From an uncultured Pelagibacteraceae bacterium (GTDB lineage Bacteria; Pseudomonadota; Alphaproteobacteria; Pelagibacterales; Pelagibacteraceae): a stretch of DNA of 64,000 nt. This document shows positions 3,801 through 58,228 of the stretch, in pieces; the first letter of the stretch is position 1; every line of letters begins with the position of its first letter. Both the position numbers and the translations under genes were made by a program. A model generated the notes under the pieces. That model ran no database searches and was not told the DNA's origin. It saw nothing but the letters and a program-made list of their open reading frames with translations. The stretch is taken from the NCBI GenBank assembly GCA_902589795.1, contig CACIUJ010000001.1, positions 17,030 through 81,029 on the forward strand, written 5' to 3'.

Positions 3801-3812
3801 AAAATTAATTAT

Positions 3813-3950
3813 TTATAATATTAAATCTTTGTAAAGTATTAATAGAATTGTAATGATAATAAACATAGCTAGATAAAGTCCATATTTAGCTTTTGGCCAG
3901 GCTAGTCTAGCCATTTTTGGTGGAGTTTTATTTTTATTGTTTTCTTCCAT
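3813..3950 (-). CDS. Possible 45-aa single-pass membrane peptide (hand-translated; below the ORF-track cutoff)
   Basis: ATG at 3950, TAA at 3813-3815. Translation: MEENNKNKTPPKMARLAWPKAKYGLYLAMFIIITILLILYKDLIL, a basic N-terminus followed by one hydrophobic helix. It ends 12 nt upstream of the GS-like gene and sits just downstream of a strong terminator. No Shine-Dalgarno sequence is visible. Confidence 0.2.
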   Translation of the reverse strand: MEENNKNKTPPKMARLAWPKAKYGLYLAMFIIITILLILYKDLIL

Positions 3951-3967
3951 AATTTTAGAAATCTAGT

Positions 3968-4006
3968 AAAAAAAGGGCGCTAAGCAAGTTAGCGCCCAAA
4001 TTTTTT
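3968..4006 (-). terminator. Rho-independent terminator after the amt / small-membrane-protein operon (symmetrical, could act in both directions)
   Basis: Perfect 9-bp GC-rich stem GGGCGCTAA (3975-3983) / TTAGCGCCC (3989-3997) with a 5-nt loop. It is flanked by an A7 run (3968-3974, read as a U-run on the minus strand) and a T6 run (4001-4006). Confidence 0.75.
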
Positions 4007-4017
4007 AGTATTTTATA

Positions 4018-4260
4018 TTACCATTCGGTAATATTTTTTTTGTAATCGTTAGCACCTGGTCTTTTTCTAGCTAACTTTTGCTGCTCTTCAGCTTCACCAG
4101 CTCCAGTAGAAACATGGAACCAAAGCCAAAAAACTATCGCAACTGTTAACCACATCCACTCTGTGCCAACCATAGGATAAATGTCAGCAACTTGTACTCC
4201 TTCAGTTGCTGCATCCACATCTGTTGTTAGATGTTCTATCCAATTTGTTACTGATGCCAT
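4018..4260 (-). CDS. Small (80-aa) single-pass membrane protein co-transcribed with the ammonium transporter
   Basis: A strong Shine-Dalgarno sequence (AGGGAGGAATAAATT-ATG on the minus strand) lies 25 nt downstream of the amt stop. One Trp-rich hydrophobic helix 'WMWLTVAIVFWLWFHV', an acidic N-terminus and a basic C-terminus. I do not recognise the family. Confidence 0.6.
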   Translation of the reverse strand: MASVTNWIEHLTTDVDAATEGVQVADIYPMVGTEWMWLTVAIVFWLWFHVSTGAGEAEEQQKLARKRPGANDYKKNITEW

Positions 4261-4285
4261 AATTTATTCCTCCCTATCTACTTGT

Positions 4286-5674
4286 TTAACCGACTGTTCT
4301 TTCATCTTTTCTAGCCGATTCCATTATATTGTAGTCTAGTCCTGCTATTTCTACTTCTCGAGGTATACGTAATTTACCTGCTCCGTGAAGTATTTTAGCC
4401 AAGATCCAGCCCGGTAAGAAACCAAGAACACCGAACATTATTATAGCTCCGATAAACATTCCTAGAGGGTTAATTGGTGCATAGTCAGTACCAACCCACA
4501 TTGATCCAACACTGTATCCAGATGAAGGATATCCCCATAAAACGAAACCGCATATAATAAGTCCGACAACACCAGCATAACCGTGTACAGCTACTGCACC
4601 TACCGCATCATCAATTTTGAATCTACGTTCAACCCAATAATGCATTTTGTATGCAATGTATGTACCTACAGAAGCAATAAGCATTGCTTGCAGAGGATGA
4701 TATAAATCATTTCCTGCAGAAGCAGTGATAATTCCTGCTAGTCCACCAGAATAAGTCCAGAACGGATCTCCTTTAGAAACCCAATAACCAGCTAACAATC
4801 CTCCTGATAATGACATCAAGAAGTTAAATGTAATACCACTAAGTGTAGTCGGTGTTACATAAATACTTGTTGCCGTAAAGAAAGTTGTTCCTTCCATTCC
4901 GTATTCAGGTCCAAGATCAAATATAGGTATATTACAAGCTGCGTAGAAACCCCAGAAACCTGTATAAATTAAGAACAACCCTATAGTTACTAACCAAGGG
5001 TTTCTTGGTCCAATGTTTCTTGGTTCACCGCTAGATGAAAATTTCCCTATACGAGGTCCTAAAACTGCTAGAACTCCCAAAGCGAATCCTCCTGCTATAG
5101 CATGAATTACTCCTGATGCGTATGCATCGTGATAACCTAATAGTTTAAGCATCCAACCATCAAAGTGCCATCCCCATGCAGCATCGATTGTCCAAAATAC
5201 AGAACCAATTGCAATAGCTAAAATACCAAATGCAAAAGTTGTAATTCTTTCAATGATTGCCCCAGAAACGATTGATGCGGCAGTCCAAGAAAATAAAAGG
5301 AACGCTGCCCAGAATACTCCACTAATGTGGTCACCTAAGTTTACCGCCATTAAGTTACTCGTAGCTACGTACCATTTTGCACTAAATAAAGATTCATCCG
5401 TAATTAATGCTGCGCTTTCGTTCATAATTGAAGGCGCTAGTCCTGGTCCTGTTGGAAATGCCCAATAAATCCACCAACCAAAGAAAAACCATGTTACTGT
5501 TACCAGTGGTATCAATAATGTATTTTTCATAAGAGTGTGTTGGTGATGTTTGTAACGTGATGCTCCAACTTCATACATACAAAATCCTACGTGGATCAAA
5601 AACATAAGTACTACAGTGATCCAATAATAAAATTCTGTGAATATGGTAGTTAAAGCTCCCAATCCATCAGTCAT
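4286..5674 (-). CDS. amt: Ammonium/methylammonium transporter, Amt family
   Basis: 462 aa, polytopic (about 11 hydrophobic helices). Amt signature regions with the twin conserved His: 'HDAYASGVIHAIAGGFALG' and 'DDAVGAVAVHGYAGVVG'. Strong Shine-Dalgarno sequence GGGAGGA upstream. Confidence 0.9.
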   Translation of the reverse strand: MTDGLGALTTIFTEFYYWITVVLMFLIHVGFCMYEVGASRYKHHQHTLMKNTLLIPLVTVTWFFFGWWIYWAFPTGPGLAPSIMNESAALITDESLFSAKWYVATSNLMAVNLGDHISGVFWAAFLLFSWTAASIVSGAIIERITTFAFGILAIAIGSVFWTIDAAWGWHFDGWMLKLLGYHDAYASGVIHAIAGGFALGVLAVLGPRIGKFSSSGEPRNIGPRNPWLVTIGLFLIYTGFWGFYAACNIPIFDLGPEYGMEGTTFFTATSIYVTPTTLSGITFNFLMSLSGGLLAGYWVSKGDPFWTYSGGLAGIITASAGNDLYHPLQAMLIASVGTYIAYKMHYWVERRFKIDDAVGAVAVHGYAGVVGLIICGFVLWGYPSSGYSVGSMWVGTDYAPINPLGMFIGAIIMFGVLGFLPGWILAKILHGAGKLRIPREVEIAGLDYNIMESARKDERTVG

Positions 5675-5795: not shown

Positions 5796-6191
5796 TTAGA
5801 ATTTTTTATAGGCTTTTTTTAAATCTACAAGTGGGTGTTTTGGTGACATTTGAAATTTAATTAATAGTTCTCTTGCAATCATGTCTCTATCTTGTTGATT
5901 ATCAGGTAATTTAATTTTCTTTGGTATTGTAACCCAACCATTTGCATTTCTACAAAAAACAGCTGGACGTCCTTCCTCGTAGCCCATATGTACGTCTTCT
6001 AACCAATTTAAATCATCCCAGCCCATGTGCTCAATATATTTTTTAAGGAAAGGGGTAACTTTTTTATAATCAGGCAATAAGTTTACATCATATCGATACC
6101 CGATATGCTGACCTATCATTTTTTCTCTAGAACTTTCTTTTTCTTTTGGTATAGAGTTTTTTTTTATTTTTTTACTTTTTTTCTTTGCCAT
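5796..6191 (-). CDS. Hypothetical 131-aa protein, last gene of the methylamine (gmaS-mgsABC) operon
   Basis: Starts 5 nt after the mgsC stop on the same strand. Lys-rich N-terminal tail 'MAKKKSKKIKKNS', then a soluble domain containing 'GWDDLNWLEDVHMGYEEGRP'. No recognisable motif. Confidence 0.55.
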   Translation of the reverse strand: MAKKKSKKIKKNSIPKEKESSREKMIGQHIGYRYDVNLLPDYKKVTPFLKKYIEHMGWDDLNWLEDVHMGYEEGRPAVFCRNANGWVTIPKKIKLPDNQQDRDMIARELLIKFQMSPKHPLVDLKKAYKKF

Positions 6192-6196: not shown

Positions 6197-7570
6197 TTAA
6201 ATTTTATGGAAATCATCCACTCCCACAGTATGATTTGTTCCAGTTAAAGGAACTTTTGCCAACGCAGAGGCTTCCATCGTTAATGCCGCCAAATCTTCTG
6301 GTTCTAAAGAATGAACATTAGTTTTTCCGCAAGCACGAGCTAGCAGTTGTAATTCCAATGCCATTGTATGCAGATAATTATAAACTCTTATTGCTGCATC
6401 ATCAGGATTTAGTCTCTTTCTTAATTTTGGATTTTGTGTTGCTACACCGACCGGGCATCGGCCTGTGTGGCAGTGGTAACAATGTCCAGCTTTAACCCCC
6501 ATTTCTTTTTCAAAATCAACTCCTGGGATTTCTTTATTACAATTTAATGCAATCATCGAACCAGTTCCAATAGCAACTGCATCAGCACCTAACGCCAAAG
6601 CTTTTGCTAAATCAGCTCCGTCTCGAACACCGCCTGCATAAATTAATGTTACTTTTCCAGTTTGACCAACATCATCTAAAGCTCTTCGTGCTTCACGAAT
6701 TGCCGCTATACCAGGAATACCAGTATTAGCTGCTGCAATATGGGGTCCAGCTCCAGTAGATCCTTCCATTCCATCTAAATAAATTGAATCAGGATCACAT
6801 TTTGCAGCCATACGAACATCATCATAAACTTTGGCAGCTCCTAATTTTAATTGAATTGGAACTTGATTATTCGTTAGCTCTCTTAACTCTTGAACTTTTA
6901 AGGCAAGGTCGTCTGGTCCTAACCAGTCAGGGTGTCTTGCCGGAGAACGTTGATCTATTCCTGAAGGCAATGAACGCATTTCAGCAACTTGGTCAGTTAC
7001 TTTTTGACCCATCAAATGTCCACCCATTCCAACTTTTTGCCCTTGTCCTATAAATACTTCTATACCATCTGCTAATTGTGCATGGTGAGGGTTAAATCCG
7101 TAACGTGACTGTATACATTGGTAAAACCATTTTTCAGAATATCTTCTTTCATCTGGTATCATACCACCTTCACCTGAACATGTGGCACTTCCAGCCATAG
7201 TAGCTCCTCTAGCTAATGCAGTTTTAGCCTCATAAGAAAGGGCACCGAAACTCATTCCCGTTATGTAAACAGGAATATCTAATTCAATTGGATTTTTACA
7301 ACGTGGACCAATAATTGTTTTTGTCTCACATTTTTCTCTATATCCTTCAATAACAAATCTTGTAAGAGTTCCTGGTAAAAAAACCAAATCATCAAACGTT
7401 GGTATTTTTCTCATTAATGCCATACCACGCATTCTGTAACGACCTAGTTGTGCTTTTATATGTATGTCGTCAATTACCTCAGGTGTGAAAATTGAATTTT
7501 GACCTAATAAACTTTTATTTCTACCTTTAGTAACTTTAAGACTACCATTAGTTTTTTTCTTTTTTTCCAT
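6197..7570 (-). CDS. mgsC: N-methylglutamate synthase subunit C (glutamate-synthase FMN-binding domain protein)
   Basis: 457 aa. GltS domain-2 motifs: 'GMSFGALS', 'SGEGG', 'GQGQKVGMGGHLMGQKV', 'YLDGMEGSTGAGP', 'GGVRDGADLAKALALGADAV', and a Cys cluster 'CYHCHTGRCPVGVATQ'. Synteny with amidotransferase-like and GXGXG subunits. Confidence 0.85.
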   Translation of the reverse strand: MEKKKKTNGSLKVTKGRNKSLLGQNSIFTPEVIDDIHIKAQLGRYRMRGMALMRKIPTFDDLVFLPGTLTRFVIEGYREKCETKTIIGPRCKNPIELDIPVYITGMSFGALSYEAKTALARGATMAGSATCSGEGGMIPDERRYSEKWFYQCIQSRYGFNPHHAQLADGIEVFIGQGQKVGMGGHLMGQKVTDQVAEMRSLPSGIDQRSPARHPDWLGPDDLALKVQELRELTNNQVPIQLKLGAAKVYDDVRMAAKCDPDSIYLDGMEGSTGAGPHIAAANTGIPGIAAIREARRALDDVGQTGKVTLIYAGGVRDGADLAKALALGADAVAIGTGSMIALNCNKEIPGVDFEKEMGVKAGHCYHCHTGRCPVGVATQNPKLRKRLNPDDAAIRVYNYLHTMALELQLLARACGKTNVHSLEPEDLAALTMEASALAKVPLTGTNHTVGVDDFHKI

Positions 7571-7571: not shown

Positions 7572-8414
7572 TTAAATTGCTCCTTTTTTTTCTGAAGGTT
7601 CTAAAGCATCATAATTCCAAAGTTTTTTCCCAGCTACCACTTTAGTCATTGTTGTTACATCAAAATCAGATCCTATCTCAGCAACTTTAAGTTTTCTTCT
7701 TAACCAAAAAACATCATCAGAAGAAAGTTTAGCTTTTATTGCATCGCTTCCAAATGACTTAATTTTTCCACCAACAAAAATTGTTCCATCATACATAGAG
7801 TCGCCTAAGTTGATTCCTACATCTCCAAGAATAATTATCCTTCCTCTTTGCATCATAAAACCTGTAAATGCACCTGCGTCACCACCAACTATAATAGTTC
7901 CGCCTTTCATATCTATTCCTGTTCTTGCTCCAACACTACCTTTACAGATTAAGTCACCACCTCTAATAGCTGCCCCAAAACAAGACCCGGCATTTTTTTC
8001 GATTACAACTTTTCCTGCCATCATATTTTCTGCACAAGACCAACCAACTCTTCCAGTTATCCTTACAACAGGTCCATCTATTGAACCCACGCCAAAATAT
8101 CCAAGAGATCCTTCGAAAATTAAATTTAATTTATTTAGTATACCAACACCTAAGCTGTGCTTACCTTGTGGGTTTTTAACTACCACTGTTCCATATCCTT
8201 CTTTCATTAAGGCATGAAGTTTGTCATTTAGCTGGGCACAAGTTAAATTTTTTGCGTCAATATCCGTTCTTTTATTAAAATCAACATCGTAAGCACCATA
8301 GTAGAAGAAATTTTCAGCTTCTTCAGGATTAAAAAATACTTGTTGAGTTCTTCCTGTCAGAACTTCTTTGTGTAGTCCCATTGATTGAGATTTTGAATTT
8401 TTTAAATTTGCCAT
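7572..8414 (-). CDS. mgsB: N-methylglutamate synthase subunit B (GltB C-terminal GXGXG beta-helix domain protein)
   Basis: 280 aa with repeated GXGXG-type turns: 'GSLGYFGVGSIDG', 'GSCFGAAIRGG', 'GSVGARTGIDMKGG', 'GDAGAFTGFMMQRG', 'GDVGINLGDSMYDG'. Overlaps mgsA by 13 nt. Confidence 0.85.
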   Translation of the reverse strand: MANLKNSKSQSMGLHKEVLTGRTQQVFFNPEEAENFFYYGAYDVDFNKRTDIDAKNLTCAQLNDKLHALMKEGYGTVVVKNPQGKHSLGVGILNKLNLIFEGSLGYFGVGSIDGPVVRITGRVGWSCAENMMAGKVVIEKNAGSCFGAAIRGGDLICKGSVGARTGIDMKGGTIIVGGDAGAFTGFMMQRGRIIILGDVGINLGDSMYDGTIFVGGKIKSFGSDAIKAKLSSDDVFWLRRKLKVAEIGSDFDVTTMTKVVAGKKLWNYDALEPSEKKGAI

Positions 8415-9346
8415 ACTTTTACTTCTCCGTCATAAGGATCATAAGTATCAATTTCCTGAGGTAGTAATGTTCTAATTGCAATTTCTTCTGAACCCATTGC
8501 TACCAAATCATCCGATTCATATAACACCATAGGCTTTGCAGCCATTGTATCTTTTGCCATACCTAGGGAATCTTTTGTCGCAACAAGGTAGGTAAAAACT
8601 CCATCTAGTTCTTTTAAAGAATCTTTCATTCCATCTTTTAATGCTATGCCCCTTCTCATTTTGTCAGCTAGATAAACTGCAATAAGTTCTGAATCGCATT
8701 CAGACATAAAACGCATTCCTTTATTTTCAAGAGCTCTTCTATTATTCCAGTAATTTGTTAATTGGCCATTATGAACGACAGATACATCACTGAAAGGATA
8801 ACCCCAAAAAGGATGAGCCGAACGTATATCTACACCTGATTCAGTTGCCATTCTGGAATGTCCAATTGCATGGGTGCCTTTAATTTTATCTAATCCATAT
8901 TGTTTAGAAACAACACTGGCATCACCAATATCTTTTACCAATTCTAAACTTTTTCCAAGAGATAGTATCTCTGTCATCTCGACACTTTCAATTCTTTTAG
9001 AAAATTCCATTAAATCTTTGTCATATTTAATACAATACCTAAATGAATAGGGTGTTAGTTGTGCATCATTTATAATGCTTCCACCAAGATCTCTAATATG
9101 TTTGTCTACTTGTTTTTTTCTTTCATCATAAACTGATTTATCTTCATTTACTGCAGAACTACCTTCAGCAACGTTTTCTCCAACTTTAAAACGCATTATG
9201 TAATCACCTTGATTATTACCTTGGCCATATAAAGCGAATCCTGTTGAATCGGGCCCTCTATGTTTAAGAGCCTGTAACATATCTTGCAGTTCTTTACCGA
9301 TATTTACAGTTTTTCCCTTATGAATTAGTCCAGCTATTCCACACAT
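8402..9346 (-). CDS. mgsA: N-methylglutamate synthase subunit A (class II / Ntn glutamine-amidotransferase-like)
   Basis: 314 aa beginning 'MCGIAG', giving the Ntn catalytic Cys after Met removal. GATase-2 fold motifs 'HSRMATES' and 'HNGQLTNY'. First of the three mgs subunits, directly after the GS-like gene. Confidence 0.85.
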   Translation of the reverse strand: MCGIAGLIHKGKTVNIGKELQDMLQALKHRGPDSTGFALYGQGNNQGDYIMRFKVGENVAEGSSAVNEDKSVYDERKKQVDKHIRDLGGSIINDAQLTPYSFRYCIKYDKDLMEFSKRIESVEMTEILSLGKSLELVKDIGDASVVSKQYGLDKIKGTHAIGHSRMATESGVDIRSAHPFWGYPFSDVSVVHNGQLTNYWNNRRALENKGMRFMSECDSELIAVYLADKMRRGIALKDGMKDSLKELDGVFTYLVATKDSLGMAKDTMAAKPMVLYESDDLVAMGSEEIAIRTLLPQEIDTYDPYDGEVKVWQI

Positions 9347-10920: not shown

Positions 10921-12267
10921 TTAGCTCCAAGGAAATGGGCTGCTAGATACAGGGTGCAATTCGCCTTTCGCGTAGCGATTGAATCTGAAAGGCTTAAGTA
11001 AAGTACTTTCTTTTCCCAAAAGTTCGTCGGAAACAAGATCTCCTACTCCTATCATTTTGTATCCGTGGTTGGAGTCAGCAATCATATAAACATTTTCACA
11101 AAACCTATCAAACACAGGAAAAGAATCTGGAGTAAAACACCCAAGTCCTCCTGATGGTCCTTTGTGATAAACAGCACTTTTTCCTTTAAATCTTTTTTGA
11201 CAATGTGCAAGAGCAGAAGTCCACATATGCGCAAATTCCTCCGTTGTTTGATATTCTGGAGAGTCTGGTCCATAGGGATCTACTTTAACTTCATCAACAG
11301 GTTTTATAATTTTGTAAGGCGCTGAACCTCCTTGAACACCTTTAAAATTAAAGTCTGGTTTATAATATATACCCCACATTTTATCTGTAATTAATGAACC
11401 ATCTACGTCTGAATATAAATGAGCATCACTATCAACATGAATTACTGGAGGCATCTTACCATCATCAGTTTTTTGCATATTTGGATCAACACCAAGCACA
11501 CCTTCAGTTAACATCCAGTATATCCACATTGGATAATCCTTATGAATTTTACCTTTTTCATCTCTAATTGAAATTTTTTTAGGTAATTCCAGCATATCCC
11601 AAAATCTTTTTACCCAAGGGCCAGCTCCTATAATTACTTGCTCGCAATCAATAGTTCCTTTTGAAGTTACTACTCCCGTCACAGCTTTACTATTACTTCC
11701 TCTTTTAAAACCTGTAACTTCTGTACCTGTTATAATTCTTGTTCCACAACTTTCTGCTTTGTTTGCTAATCCATAAATTGCAGCGGTATTATTTGCATAT
11801 CCGCCTCTTTTTTCATGGAGAACCGAAGTTATTCCCTTAGCTTGCCAATCATGAAACATATTTTTCATATATTTCATTGAGTCATTTTTTCCTTCTATAA
11901 ACTCAGAATCATAACCGATAGCTTTTTGTTGGTCATAAATACTTGCAACATCTTTGTGCATACTTTCTGGACTTATCTGCATATAACCTACCGGGTGATA
12001 GCTAAAATTTTTTGGATCACTTTCCCAAATTTTAACACTGTGCACCATTAATTCTCTCATAGCGGGTTGGAAATAATTATTTCTAACTACACCACAAGCA
12101 ACTCCGCTTGCGCCAGAAGCTATTCCACTTTTATCTAAAACAACTATATCGTTGTTTGAACCATTACCATTTTTTTTCTTGAGTTTTTGTGAAAGATGCC
12201 AAGCTGTACTTAATCCATGAATTCCAGCACCTATAATTACATATTTTGCTTTTTTTGGAAATGCCAT
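10921..12267 (-). CDS. FAD-dependent oxidoreductase, DAO (SoxB/PuuB/MgdA-like) family, stand-alone
   Basis: 448 aa. N-terminal dinucleotide fold 'YVIIGAGIHGLSTAWHL', then 'GASGVACGVVR', 'VIIGAGPW' and a C-terminal 'HGYKMIGVG'. Starts 1 nt after the tdm stop, so it is co-transcribed with tdm. Confidence 0.8.
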   Translation of the reverse strand: MAFPKKAKYVIIGAGIHGLSTAWHLSQKLKKKNGNGSNNDIVVLDKSGIASGASGVACGVVRNNYFQPAMRELMVHSVKIWESDPKNFSYHPVGYMQISPESMHKDVASIYDQQKAIGYDSEFIEGKNDSMKYMKNMFHDWQAKGITSVLHEKRGGYANNTAAIYGLANKAESCGTRIITGTEVTGFKRGSNSKAVTGVVTSKGTIDCEQVIIGAGPWVKRFWDMLELPKKISIRDEKGKIHKDYPMWIYWMLTEGVLGVDPNMQKTDDGKMPPVIHVDSDAHLYSDVDGSLITDKMWGIYYKPDFNFKGVQGGSAPYKIIKPVDEVKVDPYGPDSPEYQTTEEFAHMWTSALAHCQKRFKGKSAVYHKGPSGGLGCFTPDSFPVFDRFCENVYMIADSNHGYKMIGVGDLVSDELLGKESTLLKPFRFNRYAKGELHPVSSSPFPWS

Positions 12268-12268: not shown

Positions 12269-14614
12269 TTATGATTTTACCTTTGTTTTTTCAGGATCAT
12301 AAAAAGGAAATTTTACTACTTTTGCTTCAATTCTTTTTTGATGACCATCAATTTTACCAACCTCAACTTTTGTTCCTATATCTGAATATTTAACATCCAT
12401 TCTACAAAGAGCAATATTCTTATTTAGCACAGGTGATATCATTCCACTAGTTATTATACCAACAGTAGCTCTTCCTACGTGCACCCCATCACCGTTTGCT
12501 GCTTGCTCCTTACCTATTAGTTCTAGACCAACAAGTTTTTTTTGTGGAGAAGCTTTTCTTTTTACTAGGGCTTCTTTTCCTACAAAATCATCTTCTTTAG
12601 TTTTTAGCGCAACAGAAAAACCAATACCTGCTTCAAAAGGATCGGTTTGGTCATTGAATTCAAAACCTCCAAAAATTAATCCAGCTTCGATTCTAACCAT
12701 GTCTAAACCTTCAAGCCCCATTGGAGCAATACCTAAATCTTTTCCACACTCCCATACTTTATCCCAAACTTGCGAAGCATCCTTTGGATGACACCATAAT
12801 TCAAAACCTAATTCACCAGTATAACCAGTTCTAGAAATCATCAAGGGAGTTCCTAAATGATCACCTATTCTTCCTATAGTAAATCTAAACCATTGAAGTT
12901 CATTTATCGTTGGTTGAGCAGGCGGAGTCCAAAAAAATTTTTCTAAAATTTTTCTACTATTAGGTCCTTGAACAGAGATATTATGGATTTGATCTGTTGA
13001 AGATTTTACCCAAACTTTATAATTTTTTTTCTTTGCTAATTCTCTTAACCATTCACCACCGTATTCTTGGCCACCAATCCATCTAAACATTTCTTTACCA
13101 AGACGGAATACCGTACCATCATCTACCATACCTCCGTGCTCATAACACATGGCAGCATAACTCACTTGTCCAATTGCAATTTTTTTAACATTTCTTGTTA
13201 GAGCGTATTGCATCAAACTTTCTGAATCTGGTCCAACTATTTCAAACTTTCTTAAAGGCGATAAGTCAATGGCAATAGCTTTTTCTCTACACGCAGTATA
13301 TTCCTTAATAGTTCCGTAATTTGTATAATTATTTGCTAACCAATAACCATTATAATCAATAAAATTTCTAGTTAGTTTTGATGTTTTTTTGTGAAATCCT
13401 GTTTCTTGAGTTAATTTAGGTTCCGAATCTGTTTTCATCCTGAATGCCACTGCTTTTGAAAATTCTTTTTTCTTATCATAAACTCTAACAAAAATATCAG
13501 TTGGATCCCACCCATTGCAATCGTCAATATCACTAGGACATGCAGTAGTTCCGCAAGTTAAGTCTTTTAAAGCACGTAATAATACATAGTCTCCAGGTCT
13601 AGCCCACGATTCTCCTCCAATTACAGCATTTTGTGCATTGGCAATAGTATTAAAAAAAAGGTTTATAGCAGGCCAGCCTTTTCTTTTTTCAATTTCATGC
13701 TTTTCTAAAGCCTTATTTAAATTATCAGAGCAGTTTACATGACCAAAGTATCCTGCGTCTTCGTAATATTTCGAGGTGCACGCTAAATTAAATGTATCAT
13801 GTCTTCCCACGGTATCTCTTACTACCTCAAGCATTGGATCTTGATCCATATCAAAAAATTTCGAAAACAAACCAGGCGCAGGATAAAGTGCACCCATGAA
13901 TGTTCTTGTTGTTAATGGGTCTAATCCGCGCTCTATTCCTTTTTCTAATTTAGCTGTATCAAAAGCTAAAAAATCTGAACACTGCCTTCCAAAAGGATTT
14001 ATAATTTGGATGTAATCTCCTTTTTTAACCTGGTATTCAACAGCCGTGCTGTGCTCAATAAGTATTTCATTGAGTGGATCTACTAGAGGCTCGGGAATAT
14101 TAGCTTTATCTTTATATTTGTTTGGTTTTGATCGTTCGATCATTAAAAGTAAATCTGTAGGAGGATTTTGTTCATCTATTTTCATTTCATTACCGGGGGC
14201 AGAAAATATGCAAGTGCATTTATCTTTGGAAACTAAATTTACTTTTTCACCTGCATTAGAATCATCACTAAATAAAATTGACGCTTTTGCTTTTCCTACA
14301 TCTAAATTTCTTTTTTTTAATGTGCTTGAAGCCTGAAAAGCACTTTCATTTTTATCAGATAAAATCTTTTTTATATTTTTTGGATCATTTTTTTCTTTCA
14401 GTCCTAACAAACTACAGTCAGGTTTTCCGTTTTTATTAAAAACAATTACTTCACACTTTTGTTTTCCTTCGGTATCTGTTATTTCTACTTTATCATCTGG
14501 ATCTAGAGTGACTACAGAAAGCCCTCCTCCTTTTACTAAGTATCTTTCAACTCCTGGTGGTAAAGTTCTAAGACCTGGATCCCTAATATCCATGCTAGTG
14601 AAATTTTTATCCAT
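12269..14614 (-). CDS. tdm: Trimethylamine N-oxide demethylase (DUF1989 N-terminal domain fused to a GcvT-type THF-binding domain)
   Basis: 781 aa. The N-terminal half resembles urea-carboxylase-associated/DUF1989 proteins ('GDYIQIINPFGRQCSDFLAFD'). The C-terminal half is an aminomethyltransferase fold ('IDLSPLRKFEIVGPDS', 'SRTGYTGELGFELW'). Neighbours are the tmoX/W/V transporter and tmm, matching the described Tdm architecture and context. Confidence 0.85.
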   Translation of the reverse strand: MDKNFTSMDIRDPGLRTLPPGVERYLVKGGGLSVVTLDPDDKVEITDTEGKQKCEVIVFNKNGKPDCSLLGLKEKNDPKNIKKILSDKNESAFQASSTLKKRNLDVGKAKASILFSDDSNAGEKVNLVSKDKCTCIFSAPGNEMKIDEQNPPTDLLLMIERSKPNKYKDKANIPEPLVDPLNEILIEHSTAVEYQVKKGDYIQIINPFGRQCSDFLAFDTAKLEKGIERGLDPLTTRTFMGALYPAPGLFSKFFDMDQDPMLEVVRDTVGRHDTFNLACTSKYYEDAGYFGHVNCSDNLNKALEKHEIEKRKGWPAINLFFNTIANAQNAVIGGESWARPGDYVLLRALKDLTCGTTACPSDIDDCNGWDPTDIFVRVYDKKKEFSKAVAFRMKTDSEPKLTQETGFHKKTSKLTRNFIDYNGYWLANNYTNYGTIKEYTACREKAIAIDLSPLRKFEIVGPDSESLMQYALTRNVKKIAIGQVSYAAMCYEHGGMVDDGTVFRLGKEMFRWIGGQEYGGEWLRELAKKKNYKVWVKSSTDQIHNISVQGPNSRKILEKFFWTPPAQPTINELQWFRFTIGRIGDHLGTPLMISRTGYTGELGFELWCHPKDASQVWDKVWECGKDLGIAPMGLEGLDMVRIEAGLIFGGFEFNDQTDPFEAGIGFSVALKTKEDDFVGKEALVKRKASPQKKLVGLELIGKEQAANGDGVHVGRATVGIITSGMISPVLNKNIALCRMDVKYSDIGTKVEVGKIDGHQKRIEAKVVKFPFYDPEKTKVKS

Positions 14615-14718: not shown

Positions 14719-15669
14719 ATGACTAAAAAAAACCAACCGATACTTATAATCGGTGTAATAATAATTATAGCAGTTATCATATATCTATTTACACAAACAG
14801 ATAGAAAAGTAGCTGACGGTTCTGGAGATAGCAGTGCGCCCATCGTAATCCCTACACACAATTGGTCAAGCCAAGTGGTTATGGCTTACGTAATTGGTGG
14901 TATCTTTGAAAAGAACGGTAACAATGTTAAATATGTACCGGCTGACTCTCAAGCAGTTTACGAATCAATTCGTATTGGCGATGTAACTATATCGCACGAA
15001 GTTTGGGAATCTGCTTTTGGTAAATCATTTACTACTGCTCTTGATAAAGGGGGTATACTTGACTGGGGAGATCACGAAGCAAGAACTCTTGAAGATATGG
15101 GATATCCAAACTGGGTTGCTGAATTATGCCCAGGTCTACCAGACTGGAATGCTCTAAAAAGTCCTGAATGCGCTAAGAACTTTGTAACACCTGACTCAGG
15201 TGGAAAAGGACGTATGTTAGAAGGTCCACAAACTTGGCATGGAGATTTAATACCTCAAAGAATTGAAGCTTTAGGTTTAGGGGATCTTTGGACAGTTAAA
15301 TTTGCTGGAAGTGCAGATGCACTTTGGGCAGAATTAGAAGCAGCTAAAAAAGAAGGAAGAGGAACTATAATATTCAACTGGACACCAAACTTTACAGATG
15401 GTGCTGGTTTTACATTTATAGACTTCCCTCCATACACTGCGGGTTGCAGACCAGTAGATGGTGGTGACGGAAAATGTGGTTCGCCAGATGGTTATTTGAA
15501 AAAGGCTGTAAATGCAGACTTTCCAAAAACTCATCCAAGTGCGGCAGCTATTTTCAAGAAAATGTCATTCTCTACAAGTCAAATTGGTGCAATGGCAGCT
15601 TTAGTTGACATTGACAAAATGACTCACGAAGATGCAGCTAAAAAATGGCTAGCTGATAATGGCTACTAG
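14719..15669 (+). CDS. tmoX: Betaine-type (OpuAC/ProX family) ABC substrate-binding protein; TMAO-binding TmoX candidate
   Basis: 316 aa with an N-terminal membrane anchor/signal 'ILIIGVIIIIAVIIYLF'. The OpuAC-like domain is rich in Trp and aromatic residues ('HNWSSQ', 'WESAFG', 'NWTPNF'). Divergent from tdm and upstream of an ABC ATPase, a fused permease and tmm. Confidence 0.8.
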   Translation: MTKKNQPILIIGVIIIIAVIIYLFTQTDRKVADGSGDSSAPIVIPTHNWSSQVVMAYVIGGIFEKNGNNVKYVPADSQAVYESIRIGDVTISHEVWESAFGKSFTTALDKGGILDWGDHEARTLEDMGYPNWVAELCPGLPDWNALKSPECAKNFVTPDSGGKGRMLEGPQTWHGDLIPQRIEALGLGDLWTVKFAGSADALWAELEAAKKEGRGTIIFNWTPNFTDGAGFTFIDFPPYTAGCRPVDGGDGKCGSPDGYLKKAVNADFPKTHPSAAAIFKKMSFSTSQIGAMAALVDIDKMTHEDAAKKWLADNGY

Positions 15670-15700
15670 TAGCTATTAACAAGAAAGCTAACAAATTATA

Positions 15701-15739
15701 ATCTCCCCCGGCATATTATGTTGGGGGGGATTTTTTTTT
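15701..15739 (+). terminator. Rho-independent terminator/attenuator directly after tmoX
   Basis: Stem ATCTCCCCC (15701-15709) / GGGGGGGAT (15723-15731) with one G-U pair, a 13-nt loop, then a T9 run (15731-15739). Confidence 0.75.
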
Positions 15740-15765
15740 GATATAATTTTGTGTAAAATATAAAA

Positions 15766-16140
15766 ATGAAAAAATATCTCTTTTATATAATTTTAAGTTG
15801 TTTAATTGCGACTTCAGTATCAGCTCGAAAGACAGGTTGTGAAGGAGATTGTGAAAATGGTTTTGGTAAATGGACCTATACAGACAAAACAACTTATGAA
15901 GGGAATTGGGTTGATACAAAAAAAAATGGTCAAGGAGTTGAAACTTGGCCTAATGGATATATTTATAGAGGTGAATTCAAAAATAGTAAGTGGAGCGGAC
16001 AAGGAGTTTTAACTTTTCCAGATGGGTCAACTTATGAAGGAGAGTGGGCCAACGGTTTCATGAACGGAAAAGGAACATTTACTTGGTCTGATGGAAAACA
16101 AAAAACAGGAATTTGGAAAAACGGTCAATTACAAGAATAA
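15766..16140 (+). CDS. Secreted MORN-repeat protein
   Basis: 124 aa. Signal peptide 'MKKYLFYIILSCLIATSVSA', followed by about four tandem MORN-type repeats ('YEGNWVDTKKNGQG', 'YRGEFKNSKWSGQG', 'YEGEWANGFMNGKG', 'KTGIWKNGQ'). Confidence 0.75.
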   Translation: MKKYLFYIILSCLIATSVSARKTGCEGDCENGFGKWTYTDKTTYEGNWVDTKKNGQGVETWPNGYIYRGEFKNSKWSGQGVLTFPDGSTYEGEWANGFMNGKGTFTWSDGKQKTGIWKNGQLQE

Positions 16141-16148
16141 TTAAAATA

Positions 16149-16700
16149 ATGCTACAAGATAGATATTTAAATAAACTAAGGGAGTTACCCGAGCCAATTA
16201 GACAATTTGGTGGTCTTGTTACTATAACGGTTATCGTAATTTTATCTTTTGCTATTTTAAATATTTTTTGGGGTGGTGGTGACGAATTAATTGAAAAAAT
16301 GAAAAAAGAAGAGCAAAGAATTGAAGAAGCAAGAAAACTAAGTGAACTGATTTCAACCCTCCCACCTGGTATTCTAGTATCCTATGAAGGAACTGATCAT
16401 CAAAGATTGTCCGAAAAACAATACGAAGCAGTTTGTAATGCAACAACAATTGTAACTCAGCGTGCTCTTATGGGTGCGAATTTAATAAATTTTCAAGCTC
16501 ATAAAATATATACTATCAATGGTAATAAAATTGATGAAACATTTGTTAAATGGGATAAAGAGAATAAAAAATGTTTTGCTGGTTACACTGTAAGTGGAAA
16601 TAATGTTGGGGTAAATGAAACAATTGATGTTAGTGGAGAGGCTTTAAGTTTTTTTAATACCGGAATTGATACAAGGGTTTATTTTATTAAAAATTTTTAG
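16149..16700 (+). CDS. Hypothetical membrane-anchored protein (183 aa from the ATG at 16149)
   Basis: The ORF-track start (16113) overlaps the MORN gene, so the ATG at 16149 ('MLQDRYLNKL') is more plausible. One N-terminal TM helix 'LVTITVIVILSFAILNIFW', a coiled-coil-like 'EKMKKEEQRIEEARK', then a soluble domain. No recognised family. Confidence 0.5.
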   Translation: MLQDRYLNKLRELPEPIRQFGGLVTITVIVILSFAILNIFWGGGDELIEKMKKEEQRIEEARKLSELISTLPPGILVSYEGTDHQRLSEKQYEAVCNATTIVTQRALMGANLINFQAHKIYTINGNKIDETFVKWDKENKKCFAGYTVSGNNVGVNETIDVSGEALSFFNTGIDTRVYFIKNF

Positions 16701-16763
16701 GGAGGCAAAAACAGTAATTAGTGTGTATATTTATTTTTATTTCGTATAAATTGTTAAAAAATT

Positions 16764-17795
16764 ATGACTGATGCGGTAATTAAATGTGACTCTGTATATA
16801 AAATTTTTGGAGCAAATGCCAAAAAGATGCTCCAAGAAGCAAATGGAAATGTGGACGCAAAAACATTCCAGAAAATGGGATGTATTGTTGGCGTGAATAA
16901 TGCTTCTTTTGAAGTTGCAAAAGGAGAAATGTTAGTTGTAATGGGATTATCTGGTTCAGGAAAATCTACATTATTAAGATGTATTTCTAGATTAACAGAT
17001 GCCACAGATGGAAAAATTTATATAGAAGGTCAAGATTTACTCTCATTAAATAACAAAGAACTAATTGAACTTAGAAGAAATAAAATGGGAATGGTTTTTC
17101 AAAGTTTTGCTTTACTTCCACATAAAACAGTTTTGGAAAATATTGCCTTTCCACTTCAAATTAAAGGAATGGAAACTGAAGATAGTATTAAGAAAGCTGT
17201 GGATATGGTTAAACTTGTTGGTCTTGAGGGAAGGGAAAATTATTTTCCAAGGGAGCTTTCTGGTGGACAACAACAAAGAGTAGGGATCGCACGATCATTA
17301 GCTGTTGAACCTGATATTTGGTTTCTAGACGAACCTTTTTCTGCACTAGACCCATTGATTAGAAAAGAAATGCAAGATGAATTTTTAAGACTTCAAGAAA
17401 AATTACAAAAAACAATCATGTTTATTACTCATGATTTTGACGAAGCATTAAAACTTGCTGATCGCATTGCAATTATGAAAGATGGAGTAATTGAGCAGCT
17501 AGATACGCCAGCAAAAATTGTATTAAATCCAGCGACAGAATATGTAAAAAAATTTACTGAGGAAGTGCCTAGAGAAAAAGTTTTAAAAATAGAAGATGTA
17601 ATGGAAAAACCAAATAATGAAAATTTAGGTGATCTAAAAGTTTCAAAAGACGAGATAATTGAAAATGTTGCTGAAAAAATTTTAACTCAAGAAAAATCAG
17701 TAACTGTAACTGGTGAAAAAAATAAAATTGTTGGAACGGTCCAACCTTCAAAAATAATCCATACTGTTTTTGGAGGAAGAAGAAATAACAGTTAA
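16764..17795 (+). CDS. tmoW: ABC transporter ATP-binding protein, ProV/OpuAA type
   Basis: 343 aa. Walker A 'GLSGSGKST', Q-loop 'MVFQSFALLPH', signature 'LSGGQQQRVGIARSL', Walker B 'IWFLDEPFSALD', H-loop 'ITHDFDEA'. The C-terminal tail looks too short for the tandem CBS domains of classical ProV. Confidence 0.85.
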   Translation: MTDAVIKCDSVYKIFGANAKKMLQEANGNVDAKTFQKMGCIVGVNNASFEVAKGEMLVVMGLSGSGKSTLLRCISRLTDATDGKIYIEGQDLLSLNNKELIELRRNKMGMVFQSFALLPHKTVLENIAFPLQIKGMETEDSIKKAVDMVKLVGLEGRENYFPRELSGGQQQRVGIARSLAVEPDIWFLDEPFSALDPLIRKEMQDEFLRLQEKLQKTIMFITHDFDEALKLADRIAIMKDGVIEQLDTPAKIVLNPATEYVKKFTEEVPREKVLKIEDVMEKPNNENLGDLKVSKDEIIENVAEKILTQEKSVTVTGEKNKIVGTVQPSKIIHTVFGGRRNNS

Positions 17796-17798
17796 ATT

Positions 17799-19952
17799 AT
17801 GGAATTATTAAAAAAATATCCAAAGTTATTTCAATGGTTATTTTTGTTAATCGTATTTTTTGCTTTATGCTTTTCAATTGATGTTCCCGAAACCTACAAA
17901 TTTATAAGAGGTCAAGCTGAATTCATTAAAGATCCCAATCAAAGCACTTACACACTATTTGGCACGGAAGTTAGGTATTACGCATTCGATGTTCTTTGGA
18001 GACTCCCTCCTTTGCTTGGATGGTTACCTATTTGGGTAAACGATACTTTATTTTTCTTATTGAATGAGTGGATGCCAATGGAGTTTTGGAACGAAGCTAC
18101 TCGAGAATATAAAACTAGACCCTTAGTTCTACAAATAACAAGAAACATAACTGCATTTATGACATTTCTCATTGAATTTATTAGAGAAATTTTATTAGGA
18201 GGCGTTGAGACTGTTGTCGCATTCACAAGTTGGGATTTCGTAAGTACATATCGATGGGCAAAATTACCAGGCTTGCCATGGACAATCGTTGCAGCAGGTG
18301 CAGCAATATTAAGTTACAAACTCAGCGGTAAGGGTCTAGCTATATTTGCTGGTTTAGTCATGATTTATATTTCTGTATTTGGTCAATGGAAACCTTCAAT
18401 GCAAACGCTCTCTTTTATATTAGTAGCAGCACCACTTTCTTTCGCTTTTGGTTTGAGTTTAGGCATTTGGGCTTACAAGAGTAAACGAGTTGAAAAAGCC
18501 TTATATCCAATACTTCTAACTATGCAGACGATGCCTCAATATGCTGTTCTAGTTCCTGCTATGGTTCTGTTTGGCATTGGAGATCATGCTGCAGTTATTA
18601 TAACAATGGTAGTTGCTATTCCGCCAATGATCTTATTAACTTTGCTTGGCCTTAGAGCAGTACCTCCAGAAGTTATTGAAGCTGGTAAAATGAGTGGGTG
18701 TAATAATTTTCAACTTATGACCAAGGTATTAGTTCCAACTGCAAGAAGAGACATTTTAATTGGAGTGAACCAAGTCATAATGGTGTGTTTTTCTATGGCG
18801 GTTATTGCAGCTTTTATAGGTGCTAAAGGATTAGGATGGAATTTATTGTTAGCCTTAAATCAACTAAATATTGGATTAGCATTAGAAGCAGGTCTGTGTA
18901 TTAGTTTGATTGCAATCTTGTTAGATAAAATGTCTTTAGCATGGGCAAATAAACAAGAAGATTATTTTGGTAACTTAACATTTTTTCAACGTTATAAAAA
19001 CTCATTGTTTTTTGCTGGCGCACTATTGATTGGAATTATACTTTCTTACGCTGGATCTTTTTACTTTAAAGAAGGTTATAATTATTTTTTTGAGGTCCCG
19101 CATAATAAAGGAATATCAACCGCAGATTTCTGGAATAAGGGTGTTGACTGGATTTTTGATACGTTCTTCGTATATATAAAAGCATTTAATACATGGTTAA
19201 TTGTAGAAGTGCTTCAGCCAATGAGAGCCTTGTATCTAAGAATGCCAGCAGTCGCTACTTTAGTGTTAGTTGTTGGGGCAGGTTATATAATTGGTGGAAT
19301 TCGTTCAGCTTTAGTAGTAGGTGGATTAGCGTTATTTATAGCCCTAAGTCCATGGTGGGATAGAGCTTTAGTCACAACATATATGGCAACTTTTGGAGTT
19401 ATTATATCTTGCACAATTGGATTAACTGTTGGAACTTTATGTCAACAAAATAAATATACCACAAAATTTATGTTGGCAGTTTGTGATATTTTTCAAACGT
19501 TTCCTTCGTTTGTATACTTAATTCCAGTAATGATGCTTTTTGGAGTTACAGATACATCAGTATTAATTGCAGTAATTGTTTACGCAACTATACCTGCAAC
19601 AAGGTACACTATTGAGGGATTAAGAAGTGTTCCAGCTGGGCTGCATGATGCTGCATCAATGTCTGGTGTAACGAAATTTCAAAGATTAATAAATATAGAA
19701 TTTCCAATAGCTTTTCCTCACATGATGCTTGGCGTAAATCAAACAATAGTATTTGCTCTGTTTATGGTAATCATCGGTGCATTTATTGGAACAGAAGATT
19801 TAGGACAATATATTCTAAAAGCTTTATCTGATAAAGCAGGTGGAGGTAAAGGATTAATACTTGGTATTTGTGTCGCTTTCATAGCTCTGATATTTGATAA
19901 TTTAATTAGAACTTGGGTACAAAAAAGAAAAAAACATCTTGGTATAGATTAA
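17799..19952 (+). CDS. tmoV: Fused double-domain ABC permease (two ProW/OpuAB-like transmembrane domains)
   Basis: 717 aa, polytopic. Two copies of the binding-protein-dependent permease core, each with an EAA-type loop: 'EVIEAGKMSGCNNFQLMTKVLVPTA' and 'GLHDAASMSGVTKFQRLINIEFPIA'. Starts 4 nt after the ATPase stop. Confidence 0.85.
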   Translation: MELLKKYPKLFQWLFLLIVFFALCFSIDVPETYKFIRGQAEFIKDPNQSTYTLFGTEVRYYAFDVLWRLPPLLGWLPIWVNDTLFFLLNEWMPMEFWNEATREYKTRPLVLQITRNITAFMTFLIEFIREILLGGVETVVAFTSWDFVSTYRWAKLPGLPWTIVAAGAAILSYKLSGKGLAIFAGLVMIYISVFGQWKPSMQTLSFILVAAPLSFAFGLSLGIWAYKSKRVEKALYPILLTMQTMPQYAVLVPAMVLFGIGDHAAVIITMVVAIPPMILLTLLGLRAVPPEVIEAGKMSGCNNFQLMTKVLVPTARRDILIGVNQVIMVCFSMAVIAAFIGAKGLGWNLLLALNQLNIGLALEAGLCISLIAILLDKMSLAWANKQEDYFGNLTFFQRYKNSLFFAGALLIGIILSYAGSFYFKEGYNYFFEVPHNKGISTADFWNKGVDWIFDTFFVYIKAFNTWLIVEVLQPMRALYLRMPAVATLVLVVGAGYIIGGIRSALVVGGLALFIALSPWWDRALVTTYMATFGVIISCTIGLTVGTLCQQNKYTTKFMLAVCDIFQTFPSFVYLIPVMMLFGVTDTSVLIAVIVYATIPATRYTIEGLRSVPAGLHDAASMSGVTKFQRLINIEFPIAFPHMMLGVNQTIVFALFMVIIGAFIGTEDLGQYILKALSDKAGGGKGLILGICVAFIALIFDNLIRTWVQKRKKHLGID

Positions 19953-27756: not shown

Positions 27757-27759
27757 TAG

Positions 27760-28026
27760 ATGTTAGAAATTAAATGCCCATATTGCGGAAAAAGATCTCA
27801 AAATGAATTTTCTTATGGTGGAGATGCAAATATAAAAAGACCAGAGCTTGGAAAGGAAGTTTCTGATAGGGAATGGGATGATTTTGTCTACTTTAGAAAA
27901 AATCCAAGAGGAATGCATTTAGAGTTGTGGCACCACGTAGCTGGCTGTAGACAGTGGTTTAAAGTATCACGAGATACATCAACACATGAAATTTTTAAAA
28001 CATCAAAAATAAACGAGGAATTATAA
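27760..28026 (+). CDS. soxD: Sarcosine oxidase delta subunit family protein
   Basis: 88 aa. Zn-ribbon-like 'CPYCGKRSQNEF' and 'WHHVAGCRQWF'. Position between the beta and alpha subunit genes. Confidence 0.85.
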   Translation: MLEIKCPYCGKRSQNEFSYGGDANIKRPELGKEVSDREWDDFVYFRKNPRGMHLELWHHVAGCRQWFKVSRDTSTHEIFKTSKINEEL

Positions 28027-28033
28027 TTTTTAT

Positions 28034-58207: not shown

Positions 58208-58228
58208 AAGGTTTGATATAGTCCTCAT

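Follow-up and report, generated by a model that had tools for sequence, protein, structure and literature searches.

A stretch of 64,000 nucleotides from an uncultured Pelagibacteraceae bacterium (GenBank assembly GCA_902589795.1, contig CACIUJ010000001.1, positions 17,030 to 81,029; hereafter the window) was analysed around the gene of a flavin adenine dinucleotide (FAD) oxidoreductase of the DAO family, here called DAO. The window has a SAR11-type composition with low GC content (~32-35%). An earlier note made from its sequence had described DAO as an orphan gene beside tdm, the gene of trimethylamine N-oxide (TMAO) demethylase, and as a candidate for a missing step in methylated-amine degradation. 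The observation itself was confirmed in full, but the interpretation was supported only in part, the orphan status, the linkage to tdm and two of the three proposed functions being the points affected. DAO opens a module of six genes that is found in many bacteria, and judged from sequence this module is the best available candidate for the disposal of dimethylamine (DMA) in SAR11.

Organisation of the locus

The genes and features of the window that bear on DAO are listed in Table 1. The open reading frame (ORF), its length and its distances to tdm and to the following ligase gene, GS489, had been given exactly in the earlier note, which did not state the strand. The stop codon of tdm (TAA, 12271-12269) and the ATG of DAO (12267-12265) are separated by exactly 1 nt, and 81 nt lie between DAO and GS489, which starts at 10839. 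The start codon of DAO is considered right because the N-terminus, MAFPKKAKYVIIGAGIHG, agrees with hundreds of full-length homologues. No terminator-like site was found on the minus strand between tdm and the transporter gene amt in a terminator scan, and the transcription unit from tdm to amt probably ends at the hairpin 3' of the small membrane ORF. A promoter scan of the region gave a result no better than shuffled sequence, and an Rfam scan of the whole window returned no riboswitch near the DAO gene.

Table 1 Genes and features around DAO in the window (positions of the 64,000-nucleotide stretch; scores in bits)
Feature	Position	Strand	Support
GS441, true GmaS ortholog (gamma-glutamylmethylamide synthetase)	2475..3800	-	TIGR03105 615 (cut-off 469.6)
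Bidirectional terminator-like hairpin	3975..3997	both	9-bp stem, 6 GC pairs, T-runs on both strands
Single-pass membrane ORF, 80 aa, directly 3' of amt	4018..4260	-	tblastn E = 9e-17 to a 76-aa ORF family
Amt-family transporter (ammonium/methylammonium type), 3' of module	4286..5674	-	PF00909 173
orf131, 131 aa, last gene of module	5796..6191	-	no Pfam/NCBIfam match
MgsC', glutamate-synthase-domain subunit (flavin mononucleotide, FMN)	6197..7570	-	PF01645 301
MgsB', GXGXG-domain subunit	7572..8414	-	PF01493
MgsA', class-II glutamine-amidotransferase subunit	8402..9346	-	GATase_6/7
GS489, GmaS-like gamma-glutamyl-amine ligase, 489 aa	9370..10839	-	Gln-synt_C 265
DAO-family FAD oxidoreductase, 448 aa, ATG start, gene 1 of module	10921..12267	-	Pfam DAO
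Tdm, TMAO demethylase, DMA as product	12269..14614	-	NF053776 1156 (cut-off 1100); 51% identity to pAMI6 Tdm
TMAO ABC transporter: tmoX, two small ORFs, tmoV, tmoW	14719..19952	+	ORFs; synteny with SAR11 loci
Tmm, trimethylamine monooxygenase	19969..21309	-	NF058570 746 (cut-off 675)
soxB-soxD-soxA-soxG, candidate N-methylglutamate dehydrogenase (Mgd) or sarcosine oxidase	26500..31614	+	TIGR01373 703 (cut-off 529); TIGR01372 1331 (cut-off 1164)
SoxD ORF within soxBDAG	27760..28026		
Electron-transfer flavoprotein (ETF) beta, ETF alpha, ETF-ubiquinone oxidoreductase	56505..59836	+	PF01012, PF05187, PF21162 matches

Family and active site of the flavoprotein

DAO matched the Pfam DAO model (PF01266) with 126.2 bits against a gathering threshold of 27.9, over residues 9-235 only, and its N-terminus carries the dinucleotide-binding motif GAGIHG. 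Two relatives at 40-45% identity (P0124 and P0127) match the entire model. Assignment to any curated NCBIfam family was rejected, all scores being 5- to 14-fold under the cut-offs and confined to the FAD domain: SoxB/MgdA (TIGR01373) 87.7 bits against 529.45, over the N-terminal half only; monomeric sarcosine oxidase (MSOX, TIGR01377) 42.1 against 479.65; MTOX (NF008425) 56.8 against 257; glycine oxidase ThiO 48.2 against 250.8; D-amino-acid dehydrogenase DadA 28 against 383; and L-pipecolate oxidase 48.4 against 600. No PuuB family was among the NCBIfam hits, the presence of a PuuB model in the library being unconfirmed.

The closest solved sequences were SoxB beta subunits and the beta subunit of P. 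horikoshii proline dehydrogenase, with strong matches over the FAD domain and a weak second match at a C-terminal motif. The AlphaFold (AF2) model of DAO (pLDDT 84, pTM 0.88) has the full two-domain fold. Its best fold matches in the Protein Data Bank were SoxB beta subunits (TM 0.70-0.73, 18% identity), followed by proline dehydrogenase beta, MSOX, dimethylglycine dehydrogenase and oxidase (DMGDH/DMGO), L-amino-acid deaminase and glycine oxidase. The histidine of SoxB that binds FMN covalently, which we take to be His173 by count on chain 2gag_B, aligns to Asn160 of DAO (ANNT, against ARHD in SoxB), so that DAO is not a diflavin beta subunit. Near the MSOX flavinylation site lies C377, which is Ala in several homologues; the covalent-FAD cysteine of MSOX, Cys315, appears offset from it by three residues, in a mapping not made with an alignment tool.

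The ortholog group is tight (67-73% identity across SAR11, other Alpha-, Gamma- and Betaproteobacteria and an Eremiobacterota metagenome-assembled genome, MAG), and few full-length relatives were found at 40-45% identity. We regard it as firm that DAO, as a flavoprotein of one subunit, belongs to the sarcosine-oxidase clan and forms a family of its own. The earlier note's reading of it as an amine-oxidising flavoprotein was supported.

Enzymes of the Sox family anchor the substrate carboxylate with a triad of Arg52, Tyr55 and Lys348 (PMC12582975). By sequence alignment the counterparts in DAO are R62, Y65 and K404, and they are invariant in the DAO orthologues, in the 40-45% relatives and in three SoxB/MgdA homologues. 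The conserved triad therefore points to an N-substituted alpha-amino acid as the likely substrate, not to free DMA; DAO very probably acts on an N-alkyl, and probably on an N-methyl, amino acid.

Three putative fusion proteins (P0154, P0128 and P0142) were dropped as Rosetta-stone evidence, since no Pfam domain was found in them and they resemble poor gene calls. The P0127 subfamily (40% identity) was uninformative for the DAO orthologs, its context consisting of BKACE, glutathione S-transferases, an Opp-type ABC transporter and another DAO. Among the plasmids of PLSDB no homologues of DAO or orf131 were found.

Ligases and transfer complex

Two GmaS-related ligases are encoded near DAO. GS441 gave 586 bits to the characterised Rhodovulum GmaS (7cql) and is 54% identical to the GmaS of pAMI6. 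GS489 scored about 157-181 bits to glutamine synthetase (GS) and GmaS alike, with 157 to the solved GmaS where GS441 had 586. In the alignment, Asp50' of GS is replaced by Tyr65 in GS489 and the flap Glu by Trp, and all residues of the GmaS active-site list (PMC7948447) are kept (K30', Y147, Q175, D177, E179, E186, N188, W300 and R312). GS489 is by sequence a paralogue of the true GmaS with a GmaS-type, not a GS-type, active site. The amine-pocket residues were rejected as a test of monomethylamine (MMA) versus DMA, as they are all kept both in GS489 and in the Ipu-like ligases. GmaS-type ligases are known to accept several amines, and the true GmaS is poor with DMA (Km 16 mM).

The closest plasmid relatives of GS489 (51-53% identity) are found in Ipu-like alkylamine clusters. 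In Paracoccus sp. TOH p2 (L088) and on a plasmid of Ruegeria sp. SCSIO 43209 (L089) they occur as tandem pairs of GS-like genes, next to a P450 or a sulfite-reductase-like flavoprotein, type-1 amidotransferases, aldehyde dehydrogenases and a 2Fe-2S ferredoxin; these clusters resemble Ipu-type gamma-glutamyl alkylamine catabolism, and they bear on the clade of the ligase but not on DAO.

The three genes after GS489 encode amidotransferase, GXGXG and FMN subunits in the canonical order of MgsABC. They were compared with the Mgs proteins of the N-methylglutamate (NMG) cluster reported for P. aminophilus (pAMI6). MgsA' is 34% identical to pAMI6 MgsA and 32% to the canonical glxB product of SAR11, MgsB' is 36% identical to pAMI6 MgsB, and MgsC' is 52% identical to pAMI6 MgsC, against 79% for canonical SAR11 MgsC. 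MgsA'B'C' is accordingly a deep paralogue of MgsABC and a putative transfer enzyme. Canonical mgsABC (glxBCD) lies between amt and gmaS in HTCC1062-like SAR11 (L077, L079 and L082, at about 15650-21320). The corresponding interval of the window (3800-4286), like most SAR11 loci, holds no canonical mgsABC; GmaS is kept, and only Mgs' is nearby. Two GmaS-type ligases would therefore share one Mgs-type complex, which in a streamlined genome speaks for two distinct amines as substrates.

The module ends with orf131, which belongs to a family with at least 7992 matching clusters, the top 120 at 80% identity or more, all of them named 'hypothetical'. It always occurs with Mgs' and DAO, as the final gene, and its product may be a fourth Mgs' subunit or an assembly factor.

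The earlier note had pointed out that the NMG route needs an NMG dehydrogenase. A candidate is already encoded in the window by soxBDAG, with 61.6% identity between its SoxB and the set next to the pAMI6 NMG cluster; soxBDAG is by sequence a candidate Mgd or sarcosine oxidase.

Conservation of the module across species

A one-genome-per-species scan gave 599 relatives, of which the best 80 loci (43 SAR11 and 37 non-SAR11) were analysed using tblastn with the window proteins. Context was taken from 10-kb flanks, so that a gene missing from a locus is not to be read as missing from the genome. ORF calls were noisy in high-GC loci, for which tblastn and precomputed gene calls were relied on.

The conserved unit consists of DAO, GS489, MgsA'B'C' and orf131, in the same order and with 60-97% identity. 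It is carried by SAR11, Dongiaceae, Virgifigura, Hyphomicrobiales, Burkholderiaceae, Cybelea, Poriferihabitaceae and others, and outside SAR11 it usually follows a divergent GntR/FCD regulator. GS489 lies directly 3' of DAO in 38 of the 41 SAR11 and 16 of the 32 non-SAR11 loci with at least 2 kb of flank, which removes the orphan status. The three loci examined from orf131 as the starting point all had DAO, and one of them (L121) additionally Tmm and Tdm. Linkage to tdm, which the earlier note had named as a check, was found in 39/43 SAR11 loci, but outside SAR11 tdm was within 10 kb in only 2/37. The frequent neighbour tdm thus belongs mainly to SAR11, and the constant partner of DAO is the module. 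We consider the functional tie of DAO to the GmaS-like/Mgs-like module and to methylated-amine catabolism firm.

Even in SAR11 the abutment of tdm and DAO seen in the window occurs in only three loci (L003, L004 and L014). A spacer of 430-460 nt with a 116-aa ORF separates the genes in 31 SAR11 loci (most SAR11 Ia genomes), and in three others tdm is 3.5-6.2 kb away. The 116-aa ORF, present in L017 (9560-9910) and 34 further SAR11 loci but absent from the window, possibly encodes a small DNA-binding regulator; in L027 it is found between DAO and soxB.

Other methylamine genes also accompany DAO. True gmaS is present beside GS489 in 26/43 SAR11 and 5/37 non-SAR11 loci, an amt copy (>60% identity) in 30/43 and 7/37, the seven non-SAR11 copies that follow the module being 66-68% identical, and SoxB/MgdA-like genes in 2/43 and 10/37. 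Genes of the soxBDAG/Mgd type were thus seen in 10 of the non-SAR11 loci, in L120 and in the window; in five loci (L026, L045, L072, L027 and L070) DAO forms an operon with a soxBDAG set that has its own soxB, and in two (L024 and L042) it stands with amt and gmaS. DAO usually accompanies SoxBDAG/Mgd and does not replace it.

Four gammaproteobacterial loci (L023, L028, L030 and L035) have the DAO ortholog between choline/betaine-type genes and an arsenic-resistance set, within 8 kb, and no GS489 or Mgs' near it. The choline/betaine side comprises an MttB-family methyltransferase, a GbdR-like regulator, two BetA-like dehydrogenases, a DadA-like flavoprotein and a PatB lyase, the arsenic side ACR3, ArsR and a glyoxalase-like protein.

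Absence of dimethylamine monooxygenase

The genetically validated DmmA, DmmB, DmmC and DmmD of Paracoccus aminophilus pAMI6 (PMC4543880) were used as tblastn queries. No homologues of DmmA, DmmB or DmmC were found in the window, and DmmD matched only the GcvT domain of tdm, in agreement with the earlier note, which had seen no dmm-like genes there. Its statement that dmmDABC is absent from SAR11 likewise agrees with published work (PMC5520151). Among the 120 loci fetched, DmmA/B/C were found in none except L039. Besides SAR11, tdm and/or tmm stand beside the module or DAO without dmm in the island in at least four lineages, namely L012 (Dongiaceae), L038, L121 and L027/L070; in P. aminophilus, tdm adjoins dmmDABC instead.

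By synteny (TMAO transporter, tdm, DAO), DAO is the counterpart of SAR11_1304 of HTCC1062, the assignment of tmoXWV in that strain being taken from PMC8918994. SAR11_1304 carries the annotation 'monomeric sarcosine oxidase', and the adjoining SAR11_1303 has since been shown to encode Tdm (PMC3160333). Smith et al. 2013 found only one protein to be more strongly induced than SAR11_1304 under nitrogen limitation, remarked on the lack of a monooxygenase for DMA and speculated that SAR11_1304 demethylates or deaminates amines (PMC3870248). Lidbury et al. 2017 found dmmDABC in no SAR11 and named the same protein, a 'general amine oxidase', as an untested candidate for DMA (PMC5520151). HTCC1062 grows weakly on TMAO as sole nitrogen source (Gao et al. 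2022; PMC8918994); nitrogen is hence taken from TMAO without dmm, and SAR11 must have another DMA step. A pathway paper of June 2026 lists only Dmm for DMA (PMC13390433), and in the literature to mid-2026 neither a characterisation of the DAO protein nor a glutamyl-DMA route was found. The idea that DAO fills the DMA gap is therefore not new, having been published as speculation (PMC3870248, PMC5520151); the module is what is new here, together with an amino acid as the likely kind of substrate and a specific route open to testing.

Proposed route and alternatives

From the gene identities, the conservation of the module, the GmaS-type active site of GS489, the Sox-type triad of DAO and the absence of dmm, we infer the following route in each of its substrates and steps. 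DMA released by Tdm would be joined to glutamate by GS489 at the expense of ATP, giving gamma-glutamyl-dimethylamide. MgsA'B'C', perhaps together with orf131, would free the amine at the amidotransferase site and re-attach it to the 2-oxoglutarate skeleton at the FMN site, yielding N,N-dimethylglutamate with release of ammonia. DAO would then oxidise one N-methyl group, producing NMG and formaldehyde and passing the electrons probably to ETF, and SoxBDAG/Mgd would take off the last methyl group. The true GmaS would feed MMA into the same transfer enzyme. This glutamate-mediated disposal of DMA is proposed tentatively; it ranks first among the readings considered here, though it is less likely than not. 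With similar reserve we suggest that, by the same route, the six-gene module may stand in for DmmDABC in SAR11 and hundreds of other species.

Several points favour a second amine whose glutamate adduct would be oxidised by DAO: streamlined genomes have two ligases for a single transfer complex, DAO accompanies Mgd and does not replace it, the module holds the place that Dmm has beside tdm in P. aminophilus, SAR11 needs a DMA step, and the true GmaS handles DMA poorly. The earlier note was right on the methylated-amine island without dmm and on the need for a DMA step in SAR11, but none of its three options is favoured as written.

Several findings weigh against the DMA route. The Amt transporter of the module suggests ammonium or MMA as the substrate over DMA, and the amine pocket of GS489 is unchanged, nothing in the sequence favouring DMA over MMA. 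N,N-dimethylglutamate was not found in the literature as a known metabolite. In HTCC1062, SAR11_1305 and SAR11_1308 were not raised by nitrogen limitation (Smith et al. 2013; PMC3870248); with SAR11_1304 up alone, DAO can be regulated apart from the other module genes. Outside SAR11, about half of the DAO genes have no GS489 nearby and stand with soxBDAG, with choline/betaine genes or in no methylamine context, and some module loci, e.g. L086 and L119, have no Mgd within 10 kb. Lastly, in a sponge-associated Poriferihabitaceae MAG (L039, 1230-8839) dmmDABC adjoins the module. In that locus dmmB is split by an IS21 element (istA and istB fragments) and a second transposase lies between dmmD and the GntR regulator of the module; because of the split dmmB, L039 was rejected as a clear counter-example and is regarded as ambiguous.

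The same evidence speaks in part for DAO as a single-subunit NMG dehydrogenase or oxidase, the first option of the earlier note. GS489, Mgs' and DAO would then form a full alternative MMA route (MMA to gamma-glutamylmethylamide to NMG to glutamate and formaldehyde), and the DMA gap of SAR11 would remain. Only known chemistry is involved, every MMA-site residue of GmaS is kept in GS489, the extended module has an Amt-type transporter and the Sox triad is compatible with NMG. DAO would complete the route in L086 and L119, dmmDABC beside the module in L039 is what would be expected of an MMA consumer, and one JGI record calls a 92%-identical protein 'methylglutamate dehydrogenase subunit A'. It is the main rival and a serious one, but we consider it doubtful: the enzyme would be redundant with SoxBDAG/Mgd, which is co-localised in many loci and in the window, and the pathway with the true GmaS at the same loci of streamlined genomes, while both the adjacency of tdm/tmm without dmm and the growth of HTCC1062 on TMAO nitrogen would be left unexplained.

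Two further readings are considered unlikely. The module could serve another small amine (ethylamine, ethanolamine or hydroxylamine) in an ATP-driven, high-affinity scavenging of amine nitrogen, DAO converting N-alkylglutamate to glutamate and an aldehyde. The breadth of amines taken by GmaS-type ligases, the plasmid homologues of GS489 at 51-53% identity in Ipu-like clusters with P450, type-1 amidotransferase and aldehyde dehydrogenase, the occurrence of the module in soil, sponge and marine bacteria and the induction of SAR11_1304 by nitrogen limitation would all fit. The neighbours, however, are tdm, tmm, gmaS, Mgd and fhs, not aldehyde dehydrogenases, and the very high conservation suggests one ubiquitous substrate. 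Equally improbable is a sarcosine or dimethylglycine oxidase/dehydrogenase of glycine-betaine catabolism, as the database name 'monomeric sarcosine oxidase' has it. The Sox triad is kept, DAO heads DAO-soxBDAG operons that have GlxA/GbdR-type regulators and dmgdh in their vicinity (L026, L045, L072, L008 and L010), and the gammaproteobacterial loci have MttB-family, GbdR-like and BetA genes. DAO nevertheless reaches only 42 bits where the MSOX cut-off is 480, soxBDAG and the two DMGDH/SARDH-like genes of the window would make such an enzyme redundant, and the tight linkage to GS489-Mgs' would go unexplained.

The earlier note had also considered the direct demethylation of free DMA to methylamine and formaldehyde, with DAO as a non-homologous replacement of DmmABC. 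One reaction would then cover all contexts (tdm, gmaS, amt, Mgd and GS489), no dmm is present in those islands, and the idea has been raised in the literature (PMC3870248, PMC5520151). The invariant carboxylate triad of R62, Y65 and K404 points instead to an amino-acid substrate, and GS489 and GmaS would become redundant MMA ligases, which makes this reading quite improbable. A deaminating amino-acid oxidase (e.g. of glycine) supplying ammonia, or an enzyme repairing formaldehyde adducts such as thioproline, either only loosely tied to its neighbours, would be in keeping with the induction of SAR11_1304 independently of SAR11_1305 and SAR11_1308, with loci devoid of any methylamine genes and with the acceptance of proline and thioproline by Sox-family enzymes; it has no direct support against a module linkage that is strong and conserved, and we give it little credence.

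Least credible is demethylation at an amide nitrogen, of gamma-glutamyl-dimethylamide or of gamma-glutamylmethylamide to glutamine: DAO does lie directly upstream of GS489, and amine nitrogen would pass straight into glutamine, as would suit induction under nitrogen limitation, but the flavin amine oxidases of the sarcosine-oxidase clan oxidise amines and not amides, which presumably extends to DAO, the triad geometry sets the carboxylate beside the reacting nitrogen as in sarcosine, and the Mgs' complex would be left without a role. The third option of the earlier note, oxidation of an amide N-methyl group in a gamma-glutamylated DMA derivative, is thus chemically improbable as written, and its variant with N,N-dimethylglutamate after an Mgs-like step fits better. 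The leftover probability is assigned to functions outside the readings listed here.

Significance

SAR11 is the most abundant bacterial clade of the ocean surface. Its genomes hold tmm, tdm and gmaS and no dmm, and a DMA step is sought. The absence of dmm from SAR11 is the basis of the proposal that DMA accumulates, escapes to the atmosphere and forms aerosols (PMC5520151). If the DMA route is true, the presumed 'DMA bottleneck' of the ocean methylamine cycle would not exist; with a module that handles DMA, estimates of marine DMA turnover drawn from marker genes would have to be revised, and one-carbon metabolism would gain a new amino-acid intermediate. Should DAO instead prove to be an NMG dehydrogenase of one subunit, the NMG pathway would have a second, widespread form, together with a very widespread, highly conserved and unannotated 131-aa protein. 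In either case the search is narrowed to one module and three candidate compounds, N,N-dimethyl-L-glutamate, N-methyl-L-glutamate and gamma-glutamyl-dimethylamide.

Other features of the window

The 80-aa membrane ORF behind amt has 76-aa relatives that are conserved 3' of amt in 26 SAR11 loci. The two small ORFs between tmoX and tmoV (15766-16700, plus strand) encode a 124-aa secreted protein with repeated YEG/W motifs and a 195-aa protein, and the pair is kept at the same position in 25 SAR11 loci.

A quaternary-amine/dimethylsulfoniopropionate-like cluster at 45518-50569 contains a carnitine-dehydrogenase-like gene, a HalD-like gene, an unannotated 244-aa ORF, a DddP-like M24 protein (361 bits, under the cut-off of 600) and a Rieske/Ring_hydroxyl_A oxygenase (48551-49747), and is followed by a DmdA-like aminomethyltransferase (50562-51986). 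At 54023-59836 a second DMGDH/SARDH-like gene (825 aa) precedes ETF beta, ETF alpha and ETF-ubiquinone oxidoreductase, so that the island has an electron-transfer chain of its own for flavoprotein dehydrogenases; ETF and its ubiquinone oxidoreductase are possible electron acceptors of the island's flavoprotein dehydrogenases.

Comparison with known systems

Of the known enzymes, SoxB/MgdA (TIGR01373) is the nearest to DAO, as the best match in fold and in FAD-domain sequence and with the carboxylate triad in common. SoxB/MgdA oxidises an N-methyl amino acid, and the same is proposed for DAO. The identity is only 18-24%, however, and DAO has no adjacent soxD/A/G partners; it also lacks the N-terminal extension of about 28 aa found in SoxB and has two insertions, near residues 236-270 and 317-330. 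MSOX resembles DAO as a single-subunit protein with the DAO fold (TM about 0.68-0.71) and the Arg52/Tyr55/Lys348 triad, and differs in its genomic context as well as in the family score already given. DMGO and DMGDH have the same FAD-domain fold and take a methyl group from a tertiary N,N-dimethyl amino acid, as is proposed for DAO, but they carry a fused GcvT-type folate domain that DAO is without.

At the pathway level, DmmDABC has the same place beside tdm in methylamine islands and may serve the same physiological step. There is no homology between the two systems: DmmDABC comprises a DmmA-family protein, a PDR/VanB reductase and a DUF3445 (haem N-demethylase-like) protein, and is an oxygenase, not a dehydrogenase. 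The Ipu-type pathway, whose IpuC-like ligases also activate the amine by gamma-glutamylation and in whose clusters the nearest plasmid relatives of GS489 lie, continues with a P450, a hydrolase and an aldehyde dehydrogenase, and has no Mgs-like transfer enzyme, DAO or orf131. The canonical NMG pathway (gmaS-mgsABC-mgdABCD) shares with the module the enzyme types, their order and the GmaS-type ligase active site. The module differs from it in consisting of deep paralogues with a single-subunit DAO and orf131, and it co-exists with the canonical genes in SAR11. DAO is, in this comparison, a new family-level variant within a known clan, placed in a new variant of a known pathway.

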